A stretch of DNA of 37,713 bases from Asterionella formosa (Eukaryota): assembly GCA_002256025.1 (NCBI GenBank), contig NKIB01015205.1:1-37713 (forward strand), read 5' to 3'. Each line of letters starts with the position of its first letter. Within the stretch, counting starts at the first letter, position 1. Both the position numbers and the translations under genes were made by a program. A model generated the notes under the pieces. It saw nothing but the letters and a program-made list of their open reading frames with translations. It did not search any database and was not told the origin of the DNA. Positions 10,834 to 34,005 of the stretch are shown piece after piece.

Positions 10834-11673
10834 CTAACTACTACTGCTACCACTGTTGTTTTTTGGTGTTTGACATTGAGTTGAGGCAGACAAAGTTTGT
10901 TGTGCATTGGCACCTGCTGTCGAGGTTAGGTTTTGGCTTTGCATTGTTTGCTGCAATGAAATCATGTTTGAAGCAATAATTGAATTCATAATTCCCTGAG
11001 TGGGATTGGCACTGTCAGTGGAGGTGGTTGTTTGAGATACCCCATGCTGATTCAACAATGATGCCATGATTGACATCATCATCATGTTCATCATGTTCTG
11101 TTGCTCCTGCAGTTGTTGCTGCTGTTGTTGTTGCTGCTGCAGGTTATCAGTGGTATCAGTTCGAGTAGCCTTGTGAAGCAACTGTGTCAAAAGAAGAGAA
11201 AGCACTTTTTCAACAGGCCCAGTATTGTTTGGCACTGCCTTTTCTCTAAATCGAGGGGACACCATAGGTCGAGAATATCTTGAACCAGAAAAATTAGCAT
11301 AAGCGGCAGATGTTGCTCCACCATTGTCTTCACTCTCCCCGCCAGAAATCGCTATAAAATCATCATCAACATTTGGCTCATCAATATTGGGCTCATTGGG
11401 CTCTCTCTCTATTCCAAGATCAGTGGATTCAATCTCAGCACTTGCATCTGCTTGTTGCTCGATTCTTCGAAAAATTTGTTTGGCATATCTCACCTCAGCA
11501 GGGTATGTTGGGTCCCCAGTTGGTTTCTTAACTTTGTGCAGTTGTGAAAACTTTCGGCGAAGTGAAGGTCCTGTCCATTCTTTGTCTGGGAAATTCTCGT
11601 TGTGCTGTGATGCAACAACTTCCCATTCATGGGACTTTATTGAGGAGGTTGATTGATATGTAACTATATGCAT
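10834..11673 (-). CDS. Harbinger accessory DNA-binding ORF (Myb-like/DUF6818-like) with polyQ tract; possibly 5'-damaged
   Basis: EWEVVASQHN...SLRRKFSQL...PTGDPTYPAEVRYAK motif and a Q-rich tract at ~11100-11140. It converges on the 10225-10721 transposase. Confidence 0.65.
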   Translation of the reverse strand: MHIVTYQSTSSIKSHEWEVVASQHNENFPDKEWTGPSLRRKFSQLHKVKKPTGDPTYPAEVRYAKQIFRRIEQQADASAEIESTDLGIEREPNEPNIDEPNVDDDFIAISGGESEDNGGATSAAYANFSGSRYSRPMVSPRFREKAVPNNTGPVEKVLSLLLTQLLHKATRTDTTDNLQQQQQQQQQLQEQQNMMNMMMMSIMASLLNQHGVSQTTTSTDSANPTQGIMNSIIASNMISLQQTMQSQNLTSTAGANAQQTLSASTQCQTPKNNSGSSSS

Positions 11674-11801
11674 ACCTATTTTGGCAAGAGCAAGCCATTT
11701 TGAGTATGAGCAAGCAAGTCTTGAAATATTCCGGGAATTTCTATATAGTCATTCATGTCTAAACATCTTTTTATATAATGCACTGTTATTTATAACTGCA
11801 A

Positions 11802-13743: not shown

Positions 13744-14253
13744 TTACTTCTCGCTTTTTTGTGATTTACACAATTCTTTCTTTCGTTGCCAGCAACTCGT
13801 GGCGGATTCCATGTAATGCAAGTCGCTCTTGAAAATGGGACACGCATCTTCCGAGTTGCAATATAGATTGTGAAGATTGCAATAGTTGGTCGAATAATCA
13901 AGAACCGACGTGACTTGACTCTCTGAACACGCTACCAACAAACAACCGGTCTTGTCGCTCTCGAAAAATGCAAAGTCAAAAAGATCCGTGTACTTTCCGT
14001 CTCCAGTCAATCTTGATCCCTCCACAAGGTTACCATTTTCGGCTTGTAATTTGTAGTTGCCTGAATTGTGGGGGTCGACCCAACTGTTTTCTCCAGCTAT
14101 GCGCGCCTTGATTTCTTCCTTCACAATATCACACGATTCGACAAAGGAAACTTCCATGCTACATTTGGCATGAACCGTCGCCGGTGAACCTGGGCATGCT
14201 GCTGCGACCGCAAGGATTAAAGGGAGGATTGAAATTTCTCGATGAAGAAGCAT
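13744..14253 (-). CDS. Secreted cysteine-rich protein of unknown function
   Basis: 169 aa with a signal peptide (ILPLILAVAAA), about 10 Cys, and conserved-looking blocks DPHNSGNY, KYTD and DYSTNYCNLHNLYC. Confidence 0.75.
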   Translation of the reverse strand: MLLHREISILPLILAVAAACPGSPATVHAKCSMEVSFVESCDIVKEEIKARIAGENSWVDPHNSGNYKLQAENGNLVEGSRLTGDGKYTDLFDFAFFESDKTGCLLVACSESQVTSVLDYSTNYCNLHNLYCNSEDACPIFKSDLHYMESATSCWQRKKELCKSQKSEK

Positions 14254-14328
14254 GTTGTTTGCAGTTTCTTGTTGGGTTTATCTGTGTGTTAACAAAAAGA
14301 AAACGAGAAGTAGATTGTGGGTTGATAG

Positions 14329-14591
14329 TGTCGGAGAAATTATTTTAGGAAAGAAAATCCCGGTATAAATTACGAACGAATCAAAAAGAATATGGTACCA
14401 GAGAAAACTCAAAATTCGAAAACAATCTACGGTACATCACCAGTAAAAGCCATAATTCTACTAAAACTCTTAAGAACGATTACAATTGATTACTGCAACA
14501 TCGTTGTTCATATCTACAGCCTATTTGGTCCCTGATGTGTCCTTACAGGATACAAGAAAGCAATAGGGGGCTTCGGGACACAATTTCTACA
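14329..14591 (+). repeat. 5' LTR
   Basis: TGTCGGAGAA...TTTCTACA, a direct repeat of 19118-19400. Confidence 0.92.
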
Positions 14592-14724
14592 GTTTTAGTA
14601 GAATTAGCCAGCCAGGAAGAGCCATGATATTACAATCAACAACAGGTGGACTGGTGAGAGTCCGGAGACAAGATCTGAGGGTACCAGACCATCCAGAGTC
14701 TGAAGAAGTTGCACAAGGCGCATC

Positions 14725-17700
14725 ATGAGTGGCAAAGGAAAATTTACCAAGAAGGCTCAGGCCAAGGGAGGGAGCAAAAATGCTTCTCACACAATCAAGA
14801 AGTCAGTTAATGACTATAACTACTACCTCAGATCAGTGAAAAGGCACCTGATTATGAGACTACTACTGAGTACCTCATAAATCACTTATCAAGAAAGTGT
14901 TCGACTATGGCAACAACATAGGAACTGCGCTGGAGTTATTAGAACCAATGAGCACATTGGCATGGAAGCCAAGAATGCAAGTGAGCATTGCAACAACAGA
15001 AGAAGATCGCACTGCAGAGAATCAACAATATGAGATTGAGTTCAAGGCTGATTATGACACCTACAGTAAAAGGGTACAGGCCTATGAAAATATGCGTTGC
15101 TCTGGGAAAGATGCAGCAAAGCCATGAAGAACAAGATCGAAGCAAGATCCAATTACAATAGGATCAAAAATTGCCCAATAATATTGCTTATGGCAATTAA
15201 AGAACATGCACAAAATTTTCAAGAAAATCGATATTCTATGTCGATCATTTTAGATGCAATGAGAACGCTTTTATTTACAAAGCAAAAGGAAGGAGAAAGT
15301 CTACAAGACTACACCAAGAGATTTCGTGTGGCACGTGATGTGCTCAAGTCACACATGGGAGGACCCATTATCCTCACCAGGTTCGTTGAATCCATGGATG
15401 GATACAATGAGACCAACATCAAGCTATGAGATAAATTTCGAGAACAAGCTTTCAGTCAATGTATGGCCTATTTATACCTCGATAATGCAGATAAAGCCAA
15501 ATATGGATCAATTATGACCGGGCTGAACACTCAACAATAACTCGGCAACAATCAATACCCGAAGAGCATCAGCGAATCAAATAATGTTCTCAGCAACAAC
15601 CATCGGTTTGATGTAACAAATAAACCCAACAGTCACAATAAACCAGGAGATATTGATAAAGAGAGAGAACAAAAGGATGCATGGAAGGAAGAAGAAGATG
15701 TGAACTTATCGTTTGCACAGTTAGAGAGAAAATGTTACTGCTGCAGTAGAGCAGGTCACAAATCTCCTTCGTGCCGAGACAAGAATAAACCCAAAGCGGA
15801 ATGGGCTATCAACAAGGCCCAACAGAGCCATGCACAGGCACAGGCTAATACATCGGACACGAGTACAGTTACCTCTGTTAATTCCAACAACCCACCATCA
15901 TCACAAGCTTCACAACAAGCAAATGTCAATCAATTTGGATGGGCGGGAGCTCATATGAAACTACAATTTTACCAAGCATCTGAGATGCGTGACTGGATAC
16001 TATTGGATAATCAATCAAGTGTCACAGTCTTTTGCAATCCAAAAATGGTTGAAAACATTCAACTGTCAACCAATGGAAGCATGCACCTGGCCACAAATGG
16101 TGGATCCATGGTCACTTATATGAAGGCTGATCTTCCACAATGGGGAGAAGTATTGTTTAATGAAAAGGCAATCACCAACATCTTCAGTTATGCCGAAATG
16201 TCAGATAGGTACAGAATTACCTAAGACTCTGAGAAAGAAGATGCATTTATTTTTCATTTGCCTGACAAGCCAGTTCGATTTGAAAGAATTGGGATGAACT
16301 TATATGATGTTTTCAAGCCAACTACAAGAATTAGAGCAGAGAATGCTCAAATGTTAAATACACTTGAAGAAAACAAAACATTTTACACTGAGCGTCAATT
16401 TGAAAGAACCAAGCAAGCTCGTGATCTATTTCATGCCTTGGGTACACCATCAATTAATGATTTCAAGGCAATAATTCATATGAATACGATCAACAATAAT
16501 CCAGTGACTACCGATGATATCAAAATTGCAGAGAAAATTTTTGGACCTGACATCGGAACACTAAAAGGCAAGACAACTTGTTGCAAGCGACTGCCAGTCG
16601 TAAACGACAACATCGAGATCCCTAAGGAGCTTATCCAAGCTCAACGCGAAGTGACTCTTTGCATGGATGGAATGAAAGTCAATGGACAATCATTTCTCAC
16701 AACAATTTCTCGAAACATTATGTATAGGACAGCGCAATGGGTCAAGAGTCAGACAGCTGATGTCTATTGAGATGCTTTGACTCAGGTATGCTGTGTTTAT
16801 AATACCGGAAGATTTAAAATTACAACAATCCACTGTAACAACGAGTTTTGACCTTTGATGAAACAATTTTCCAATGAATTTCAAGTCACTATGAACTACG
16901 CAAAACCACAAGAACATGTTCCTGAAGCGGAGCGAAATAATCGAGTGATTAAAGAACGCGTGCGCGCAGCTTATCATCGATTACCTTTCAAACATTTGCC
17001 ACGACTGATGATTAAGATTCTAGTCACCGAATCTGCAAAGAAACTGCATTTCTTTCCGGCAAAGAACGGGATATCCCCATATTACAGTCCTCGTATGGTT
17101 TTACATCAATATAACCTGGACTATGCTCGACATTGCCAGTATACATTTGGCACTTATGTCCAAGCACATGAAGAATCTGTGTTTTCAAAAACTAATGCAC
17201 CACGCAGCCTAGATTGCATTTATCTATGCGACAATGACAACGTGCAAGGAGGTCATGAATTATTACACCTACCTACAAATTCATTGATCACTAGACGAAC
17301 AGTTACTACTCTACCACTTACCCCAGCAATTCAGGAAAATATGCCAGATGGTCTCAAGATATCAAATCGAATGGGACAACCATTTTATGATAGTGCTTGG
17401 ATTGCAGGAGTGGATTATGATAATGAAGCATTTGAAGATGCACAAGATGAAGATTATGAAGATCAACACACTAGTGACAATGAAAGCAATGATGAAATTC
17501 TCGGAGAAGACTATGATGAAATGACTCCGGATGAAAAATATGAAGCAGAACAGCTCAAATTAAACAACAATATCCAAGAGGATGACCCTGAACCTGAGGT
17601 CAACAATGAAATTAATGTTGAAATGAATGCAGATCAAATCCAAGATGAGGATGAAGAACCAGTAAATGAAGCAAACTGAGAATAAAGAGGCAATGTTAGA

Positions 17701-19095
17701 AGTCAATCCAAGCACTGAGGATTTCACAGACCCAAATGTTAGAACCACAAGGTCTGGAAGAGTCTCAAGGCCACCATCAAAACAAACTATGGTCCAACAT
17801 CATTTGCATACCCAAGCACACTGTCAAGAAGGATGCACGACTGATAATGCGAAAGTGATCGTAATGACAATGTGTTATATGAATGAGATGTGTATCGATA
17901 AAGAAGCATTTCACTTTGTTCAGTCATGCAGCTTAAGGAAAGGCCTCAAGAAATTTGGCCAGAAAGGAAGAGATGCCGTGTATAAAGAAATGAAACAACT
18001 ACATGATACAGTTGTATTTAAACCGATTAGGATTGGAGACCTAACAGAGATCGAAAAGCGACACGCAATGGAAAGTCTAATTATTTTGGTTGAAAAGCGA
18101 GACAAGAGTATTAAAGGCAGAGCTTGTGCCAATGGCAGTTCGCAACGTGAATACATGGAAAGAGATGAAGCAGCTAGTCCAACTACCATGACTGAATCTG
18201 TTATGATAACAGCAACAATTGATACAAAGCAAAATCGCGATGTTATGACTGCAGATATACCCAATGCATTTGTGCAAGTGGATATCGACGAGAAAGAAAA
18301 AGGGGAACAAATCATTATGAAGATTAGAGGTTTAGCTGCTTGTCAATATGTTGACAGAACTCAGCCCCGAGACTTATGAAAAATATGTTGTTTATGAAGG
18401 AAACAGCAAGGTCCTATATGTTAGGATGATCAAGGCATTATATGGCATGAAAGGAATGTTCCTATGCAAGCAAGGAAGACAGGACATTCAACCAGGAATT
18501 GCATTTCTGGCAACCCGAACTACCCAACCAAATGAAGGCGATTGGGCAAAATTAGTCAAGATCATGAATTTCTTGAAAGCAACTCAGAATGAGGTTGCAT
18601 CTATGAGTGCTGATGACACTCAGAGCATTAAATGGTACGTTGATGCGGCGTTTGCAGTACACAAAGATTTTAAAAGTCACACAGGAGCTATATTGTCACT
18701 TGGAAATGGAATTTTTTGTTCCATGTCTACAAAACAGAAAGTGAACACTAGAAGTTCGACTGAAGCAGAATTGGTTGGTGTCGATGACATTGTATCAAAG
18801 GTGTTGTGGACGAAATTATTTATTGAAGCACAAGGACACAAGGTGGCTGACTACGAATGTCATTTACCATGACAACACTAGCGCAATGAAGCTAGAAGCA
18901 AATGGAAAAGCAAGTTCAGGAAAACGCATGCAACATTTCAACATCAAGCATTTTTACATTACTGATCTTATTGAAAGAAAGGGAGTACAGATTAAGTACT
19001 GTCCAACGGATGCAATGATTGCAGACTACATGACGAAACCATTGGTTGGAATGAAATTTATTCATTTTCATGAGCAAATTATGAATTCAAAGTGA
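14725..19095 (+). pseudogene. gag-pol pseudogene of the CoDi element
   Basis: Zinc knuckle CYCCSRAGHKSPSC, protease ILLDNQSS, integrase EHVPEAERNNRVIKER, RT N-part ADIPNAFVQ...KALYG, and RNase H WYVDAAFAVH, SSTEAELVG and ADYMTKPL. It has many stops and frameshifts, and the RT core is deleted near 18449. Confidence 0.92.
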
Positions 19096-19117
19096 GCATC
19101 CATGCCCAGCAGGAGTG

Positions 19118-19400
19118 TGTTGGAGAAATTATTTTAGGAAAGAAATTCTTGGTATAACTTACCAACTACATATTGAATCGAATGAATCAAAAAGAATATG
19201 GTACCAGAAAAGACTCAGAATTCGAAAACAATCTACATCACCAGCAGTATAACCCATTATTCTACTAAAACTCTTAGGAACGAATACAATCGATTACTGC
19301 AACATCGTTGTTCATATCTAGCGCCTACCGGTATTTGGTCCCTGACGTGTCCTTACAGGATACAAGAAAGCAATAGAGGGCTTCCAGACGCAATTTCAAC
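19118..19400 (+). repeat. 3' LTR
   Basis: TGTTGGAGAA...TTTCAAC, directly after the PPT. Confidence 0.92.
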
Positions 19401-19596
19401 GATACAAAAAGAATCCGCTGGAACCCGGAGTGTCGAATAAAATATTGTGCTGGCGTGGTCGGCAATACCGGTAGCTAAATGTCGTAGGATGTTGTATGTA
19501 AAATCACAAATGTGTTCTTCTCGTGCGTTCACATGTGTTCTGTGTTACCGAAAAGTCAATACCGGTAAGTTCACCTCACTTTTCAAGACGAGTAGC

Positions 19597-33026: not shown

Positions 33027-33871
33027 AATGGTGATCATTGCCAGTTAAATTGAAAATATCCAGATAAACTATCTATTCGGAAATGTGCTTCCATCAGTGA
33101 CAATGATTGTAACTAGAACCTCCTACTTACCATACTCCGTACAATGATTCTCAGCAGCATGGATGGCCATAATCAGTAGACCACCTGTCTATAAATTGAC
33201 AAACATATAACACTCTGTCAGCTAGACTTCAGCATTTGTGCAGCTTCTTCTGTTAAGACATCGACCCTGGAGTAATTTCAGATAAGAATGCCCAATATTT
33301 CTATGCCAGCCAGCTACCAATTATATCATAAAGAAACAGGATAAAATTCTAGTTTTTTTAATGGCTGCACTTCTGTCAACCCTAATGGGAGGTAGTGTTT
33401 AGAACGAAAAATTAGTCGGATGATAGTCGAGCAAACACTTGTTTGTACTTAGTACCATGGTATTGGAACTCAATAACTTTGGCACTAATTTGCAAACCAG
33501 TGTGTACTTAGGAATGATATTCACTCTCATTTTGCTTTGCACATTGACAGAAGTTAGCTTTTAAAAATAGAAGATACATCATGTATGCTCACTCTACTCA
33601 GTTTCCTAATGTAAAAAGTTTTGGGCTAGTGTCATATTTGCTGACAAAAACTAGTTTGTATCACACTTTTCTGTATCATGGCTAGCACTTTCATCATCCT
33701 TTGTGGAAATGCAATACAAATAGTCTAAATAGTTGCAGCTATTCAGTCTAATCAAAGGAATAACCAAGCATAGCCAACTGAGAATCCCAGTGCACCTAAT
33801 TGAGAAATATGTAATTTTTCCCCGTAGTGTGAAAACGTCTTTCACCAGACTTTCCAGTAATATTCAGTCTA

Positions 33872-34005
33872 AATAATCTCAAGATAATACCTGTCATCTG
33901 TCAAAACTTTCTCAGCATCATCAATATTCTGATCCAATTCAGGTATCAGTCTCAATAATCTCAAGATTATACCTGTTGTCTATCAAAAATTTCTCAGCAT
34001 CATCA
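33872..34005. repeat. Diverged direct duplication (~52-bp units, 82 bp apart) in a decayed AT-rich region
   Basis: AATAATCTCAAGAT..TACCTGT...TCAAAA..TTCTCAGCATCATCA at 33872 and 33954. Confidence 0.75.

Follow-up and report, generated by a model that had tools for sequence, protein, structure and literature searches.

We identify a diatom-associated lineage of Ty1/copia-type LTR retrotransposons that most likely prime their own reverse transcription, in a manner resembling that of the fission yeast retrotransposon Tf1. The pairing on which this prediction turns joins a site in the middle of the LTR to a site adjoining the LTR end, where the primer-binding site (PBS) has its place, and it is perfect in family after family even as the paired sequences themselves diverge. 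An earlier note on this DNA had interpreted a single copy as self-priming; comparison with relatives from metagenome contigs supports that interpretation and would widen it from one copy to a lineage.

A decayed copia-type element in a gene-dense window

The window (the whole 37,713-nucleotide stretch of DNA analysed here) is a gene-dense eukaryotic region with genes for phytochelatin synthase, Pex19, AAR2, ribosomal protein L5 and a RING protein. Its further genes, which encode a 5'-nucleotidase/EF-hand protein and an NAD-binding protein, are likewise ordinary eukaryotic neighbours. Elsewhere in the window we noted a minus-strand open reading frame (ORF) with a DUF6818 domain (10834-11748) and, at 33864-34005, two 60-nt direct repeats that are 90% alike, have a start-to-start spacing of 82 nt and are unrelated to the element described below.

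An LTR retrotransposon occupies positions 14329-19400 of the plus strand, to which all of its features below belong, between an unassigned minus-strand ORF (13744-14277) and the AAR2 gene, which begins at 19441. Its 5' LTR (14329-14590, 262 bp, with the A at 14591 as a possible last base) forms a direct repeat with the 3' LTR (19118-19400, 283 bp), which carries insertions of 17 and 6 nt relative to it; the two are 87-89% identical by BLAST. The LTR begins with TG and has a terminal inverted repeat of 4-5 nt, and the 5' copy starts with a conserved hexamer that is also seen after a polypurine-like tract in relatives. The element is flanked by the two copies of a candidate 5-bp target-site duplication (14324-14328 and 19401-19405), which agree at four of five positions and are valid only with an LTR end at 14590/19400, an end that is uncertain by 1 nt.

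Translation of the interior gives gag, which has a CCHC knuckle, then an integrase-like region and an acidic stretch, and finally a remnant of reverse transcriptase and an end resembling RNase H. The gag remnant (14725-15774, with a start codon at 14725 and the knuckle at about 15733-15774) was delimited by three-frame translation and by tblastn to the N-terminus of P0001, an intact polyprotein of 1624 aa, and is disrupted by stops and frameshifts. The integrase-region remnant spans 16225-17340, and its part at 16852-17340 is 91% identical to P0001. A remnant of a copia-type reverse transcriptase (RVT_2) at 18098-18295 is a weak Pfam match (E 3.5e-4) under the curated cut-off. The RNase H or C-terminal remnant (18336-19095, ending in a stop at 19093-19095) matches the C-terminus of P0001 by tblastn at 86.6% identity, and a polypurine-like tract (19107-19117) adjoins the 3' LTR, just as the same tract precedes the LTR start in relatives. 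Because its interior holds many stops and frameshifts, the window copy is old and dead and cannot be active, and the mechanism proposed below therefore applies to active relatives.

Classification is clearer from P0001. Its RVT_2 match scores 44.4 bits against a cut-off of 31.6 and is the only reverse transcriptase family matched; the domain lies near the C-terminus (residues 1142-1372), downstream of a weak match (residues 814-867, E 0.039) to the retroviral/copia integrase SH3-like domain. In P0001 and its relatives RVT_2 was the sole Pfam domain recognised, with no protease, rve or RNase H match at E <= 0.01, and a profile of 31 polyproteins of the lineage matched no solved structure in the PDB. 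We found more than 300 relatives (334 at E <= 0.001), and those with a species name come only from the diatoms Fragilaria crotonensis and Attheya. The polyproteins of the lineage are about 1620 aa long and very divergent. Given the RVT_2 domain of P0001, the apparent order of the domains and the named diatom relatives, we treat the element as a Ty1/copia-type LTR retrotransposon of a large diatom-associated lineage. Membership of the Tf1/sushi group of Ty3/gypsy elements was considered and is ruled out by the copia-type RVT_2 domain, which is C-terminal and follows the integrase-like region.

An inverted repeat between the LTR and the primer-binding site

Within the 5' LTR, positions 14453-14468 (hereafter the LTR arm, and the predicted first 16 nt of the element RNA) are the reverse complement of 14591-14606, the predicted PBS. 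The two form an inverted repeat of 16 nt that is 100% complementary, with 122 nt between the arms, which reproduces what the earlier note had claimed. It is the only inverted repeat in 14250-14700 that is both perfect and longer than 9 nt. The second arm starts at the last base of the 5' LTR or at the first base after it and adjoins the conserved LTR terminus. Directly 3' of the LTR arm lies a short block (14469-14475) that, in a 12-sequence alignment and in lists of flanking sequence, is conserved in closer families.

Two further claims of that note also held. The sequence after the 5' LTR end does not begin with a TGG-type site, and the lack of such a tRNA-type PBS extends beyond the window, since none of the 29 distinct PBS arms described below starts with TGG. 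The core of the arm is kept in the 3' LTR, where the corresponding copy (19257-19272) has a single substitution, at 19258, and 14 of the 16 arm bases remain as a perfect match to the PBS. A tRNA scan of the window found no tRNA gene, and an Rfam scan of 14200-14800 matched no family.

The 154 nt from 14453 to 14606 fold with the arms paired at -41.2 kcal/mol (z = -4.29), and none of 200 shuffled sequences folded as well. A hairpin that had been claimed for U5 (about 14536-14554, with a stem of 7-8 bp and a loop of 3 nt) is present in the minimum-energy and centroid folds of the window and in the fold of L001, the closest intact relative, but is absent from the consensus fold of 12 relatives.

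Recurrence of the pairing among relatives

An alignment of 31 full-length relatives served as the query for metagenome contigs, from which we retrieved DNA of 79 loci; their best segments are 35-99% identical to P0001. In 22 of the 79 the element is circularly permuted, running from the end of pol through one LTR into gag (L001, L005-L009, L013, L014, L018, L027, L031, L038, L039, L048, L053-L055, L059, L061, L063, L068 and L069). The interval from pol end to gag in these contigs contains a longest perfect inverted repeat of 14-16 nt in all 22 cases; across 440 mononucleotide shuffles of these intervals, which span 311-1263 nt, perfect arms reached 11 nt at most. Among contigs in normal order that extend upstream of gag, a perfect pair of 13-19 nt is present in 16 loci and in the window.

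A second pass with script-derived arms found both arms contiguous, at 13 nt or more, in 36 of 46 sources (45 loci and the window). In three further loci (L029, L040 and L056) the LTR arm was found only in the 3' copy of the LTR. Leaving out L077 as non-assessable (the contig starts inside gag, which makes its computed upstream span meaningless), a perfect complement of 13-19 nt, mostly 15-16 nt, is present in 39 of 45 assessable sources, that is, 44 metagenome loci and the window; the 39 comprise the 36 contiguous cases and these three loci. The remaining six (L003, L016, L026, L058, L070 and L078) show no pairing above chance, even with mismatches allowed. L003 and L016 have the conserved LTR end and a candidate site, and the part of the LTR that would hold the arm is off the contig; for L026, L058, L070 and L078 the only explanation we can offer is that they may be decayed or truncated.

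Several loci are of interest for their arrangement. The two ends of the contig overlap by exactly 127 nt in L040, L052 and L056; the overlaps and the circular permutation may reflect two LTRs collapsed in assembly, tandem arrays or circles with one LTR. A real tandem arrangement, in which the 3' LTR is followed by the PBS and the interior again, is seen in L047 and L014, and the 3' LTR of L044 is truncated. Among L044, L047 and L014 there was no second integrated copy with both flanks for comparison of target-site duplications. None of the 79 loci lies on a poly(A)-tailed contig.

Compensated change in the arms

The 36 contiguous cases represent 29 distinct arm sequences, and every pair is perfect. 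The arms have a median pairwise identity of just 0.40, and the families are related, such that these counts are not counts of independent events. Arm length is nearly fixed, at 15-16 nt in 25 of the 29 (15 nt in 17, 16 in 8, 14 in 2, 13 in 1 and 19 in 1), and the spacers between the arms range from 62 to 224 nt. Counting pairs from the LTR end, we find three or four types of Watson-Crick pair at every one of the first 15 positions. Because the arm identities are so low, we infer that many separate compensated changes must have occurred.

Pairing conserved through compensatory change, which the earlier note had suggested looking for, is already visible close to the window. L001, an intact member of the window's own family that is 99% identical to P0001, carries a single change relative to the window in either arm and retains the pairing; at greater distance there are the 29 distinct perfect pairs. 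For a consensus fold we used 12 of the 36 leaders, taken from the window's family and the groups nearest to it. The fold predicts no structure other than the terminal duplex, 12 of whose 15 pairs have changed on both sides, with no one-sided changes; cells that appear broken in this alignment are aligner gaps inside the arms. This 12-leader fold yielded no conserved second stem of the kind that Tf1 has in its U5-IR stem-loop. Folded singly, all 36 leaders have their arms paired in the minimum-energy structure, with at least 12 of 15 pairs formed.

The surroundings of the pairing are conserved to different degrees. The PBS arm adjoins a conserved LTR terminus in all cases; the commonest five-base LTR ending is found with 16 of the 29 distinct arms, and close variants of it with the rest. 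Relatives likewise conserve the start of the LTR and the polypurine-like tract that precedes it, and sources with two LTRs have the arm in each. No motif is common to the sequences that follow the PBS arms. In L010 the short block that related families conserve just behind the LTR arm occurs about four times in tandem (positions 144-176).

A CA boundary and the predicted RNA start

In 28 of the 29 distinct arms, the LTR arm begins right after the dinucleotide CA or with its A, an arrangement found at 11.8% of the other positions of these regions. The corresponding binomial P, about 3e-25, is too small, as related families are not independent. A pyrimidine-purine step of this kind typically marks a start by RNA polymerase II. 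We infer that the boundary fits a transcription start there, which in the window would be at the CA at 14451-14452 and would make 14329-14452 the predicted U3, the promoter part of the LTR.

The single exception to the CA rule is a family in which the pairing extends 4 nt further upstream, across the CA, and in which the PBS is also 4 nt longer, at 19 nt. Such a case is expected if the primer extends to the 5' end of the RNA and serves as the template for the site. Put generally, the rule (an LTR-internal complement of the LTR-adjoining site, starting at CA) offers a prediction of the U3/R border and of the start site from sequence alone.

Relatives in RNA-library contigs

We found 13 sequencing runs, 12 of them on record as RNA, and used contigs only. 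At 85% likeness, libraries X1, X5, X6 and X8, which come from four studies, gave 99, 554, 16 and 42 aligned records, respectively. Relatives of the element are therefore present in all four RNA libraries, a presence in contigs that does not itself show transcription and that yielded no RNA start or end positions.

Coverage is uneven. Summed contig depth near 14536 reaches 33825 in X1 and 7438 in X8 and is tens to about a thousand elsewhere in the element. Several contigs match as far as about 14548 and then continue into unrelated sequence (the regions noted are 14500-14553 and 19333-19400 of the window). A short conserved piece of U5 may be common to many other families or to an abundant RNA. 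In both X1 and X8, which come from different studies, the match of one contig stops at 14585, and the letters beyond it resemble those immediately downstream of the PBS. The contig has the look of a variant in which some 20 nt, spanning the LTR end and the PBS, are missing; a deletion, another subfamily or an effect of the alignment could each account for it.

A model of self-priming and its alternatives

How might such an element start reverse transcription? In the model that we favour, and think likely to be correct in outline, transcription would start at the CA (14452/14453 in the window), which would place the U3/R border there and make the LTR arm the first 15-16 nt of the RNA. The 5' end of the RNA would then fold back over the spacer onto the PBS at 14591-14606, and the element's own RNase H would cut the RNA just 3' of the arm, at 14468/14469, the border between the arm and the short conserved block. 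The freed 3'-OH would prime minus-strand synthesis into U5 and R, and the resulting strong-stop DNA would then be transferred to the 3' R. The PBS would be recopied from the primer in the course of plus-strand strong-stop synthesis. Recopying of this kind would explain why the match is always perfect, why it contains no G-U pairs and why its length is nearly fixed.

Complementarity by itself admits other explanations. The helix might be a long-range RNA structure with a role in packaging, dimerisation or translational control of gag, with some host RNA serving as primer, and the arms do close a stable leader structure. A structural helix should, however, tolerate G-U pairs, mismatches and variable length, whereas the duplex shows only Watson-Crick pairs, no one-sided changes and a length that seldom departs from 15-16 nt. 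Furthermore, the 3' arm always lies exactly at the place of the PBS, adjoining the LTR end, and no other conserved site for a host primer follows it. We consider such a structural role improbable, and rewriting of the PBS probably accounts for pairing without G-U or mismatches better than selection on RNA structure alone. A closer relative of our model is self-priming in trans, in which the 5' end of a second, co-packaged RNA copy would anneal to the PBS. The comparative evidence fits intramolecular and intermolecular pairing alike, and there is no direct counter-evidence; the short spacer and the pairing seen in single-molecule folds nevertheless make fold-back feasible, and we give priming in trans only a small chance of being the actual route.

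Could the PBS instead bind the 3' end of a host tRNA or a tRNA half, with the match to the LTR being secondary? Priming by tRNA is given as the usual mechanism of Ty1/copia elements (PMC6317226), but the absence of TGG at the start of all 29 sites speaks against it here, as do the lack of a tRNA gene in the window and of an Rfam match around the PBS. The sites also differ strongly from one another and each is perfect to its own LTR, such that no single host RNA fits them all; a tRNA primer is, in our view, very unlikely. That the inverted repeat is a chance match or an artefact of assembly deserves mention, given that collapsed or circularly permuted assemblies are frequent among the metagenome contigs. 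Yet shuffled intervals never reached the observed arm lengths, the same architecture recurs across many different assemblies, in 39 of 45 sources with the window among them, and the two arms are on one strand, no more than a few hundred bases apart, and are not separated by an assembly join, which leaves this explanation with a negligible probability.

Self-priming from the element's own 5' end thus remains our preferred model. More tentatively, we put forward a broader proposition: that the whole of this species-rich diatom copia lineage may have abandoned tRNA priming, may prime with the first 15-16 nt from the start-site CA and may rewrite its PBS in every cycle, and that this system may have arisen independently of Tf1/sushi and of the plant TAR elements and may be undescribed in stramenopiles. 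We found no report of self-priming in diatoms or other stramenopiles in the full-text literature, a search outside which most subscription journals lie.

Discussion

Self-priming frees a retrotransposon from host tRNAs, and it would also allow escape from host defences that use tRNA-derived small RNAs aimed at primer-binding sites. If shown in the approximately 29 sequence-distinct families described here, it would define a third major self-primed group, beside Tf1/sushi and plant TAR, and would bear on whether self-priming is ancestral or has been repeatedly invented. There is also a practical side. The rule of a CA boundary and an LTR-internal complement lets annotation pipelines that seek only tRNA-type sites recognise such elements as complete. 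Diatom retrotransposons are described as activated by stress and as shaping diatom genomes (PMC2806351), which makes knowledge of how they replicate useful.

Among known elements, the lineage resembles the CoDi copia groups of diatoms described by Maumus et al. in 2009 (PMC2806351), which are likewise Ty1/copia elements with short LTRs and a single long polyprotein ORF; the main text of that paper makes no mention of tRNA or priming and uses 'PBS' once. Another parallel is the fungal copia element GalEa, which is described as having a Conserved Hairpin Site in place of a PBS and no complementary sequence in its LTR (PMC5445492). Like the elements described here, it belongs to copia, has no tRNA-type site and bears a conserved self-complementary feature at the position of the PBS. 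In GalEa, as described there, a local palindrome or hairpin beside the LTR makes up that feature, whereas here the partner lies 62-224 nt upstream, inside the LTR.

For copia elements, self-priming is not new in principle. The earlier note had stated that they normally use whole or half tRNAs, which is the usual Ty1/copia mechanism but gives an incomplete account: Neumann et al. in 2019 predicted self-priming for the plant TAR elements and cited an earlier proposal for Houba and Osr-1 (PMC6317226). The TAR elements, these two included, are of the copia superfamily, as is our lineage, and in both cases self-priming is predicted from sequence (PMC6317226). They differ in their hosts, which are land plants for TAR, whereas the lineage described here is associated with diatoms.

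Several features set this lineage apart from Tf1 itself. It is of copia type, with an RVT_2 reverse transcriptase and a probable integrase region upstream of it, and its complement is 15-16 nt long, whereas the Tf1 primer is about 11 nt. Unlike in Tf1, no conserved second stem was recovered, and self-priming is here a prediction from comparative data. What the two share is the core of the arrangement. Self-priming has been demonstrated for Tf1 and inferred for Tf2 and Tj1, all three from fission yeasts, and for the Tf1/sushi group of gypsy elements (PMC4600332); in these elements, as in the diatom lineage, a tRNA-type site is lacking and the PBS beside the 5' LTR is complementary to a stretch of the element's own LTR that is taken as the 5' end of its RNA (PMC4600332).
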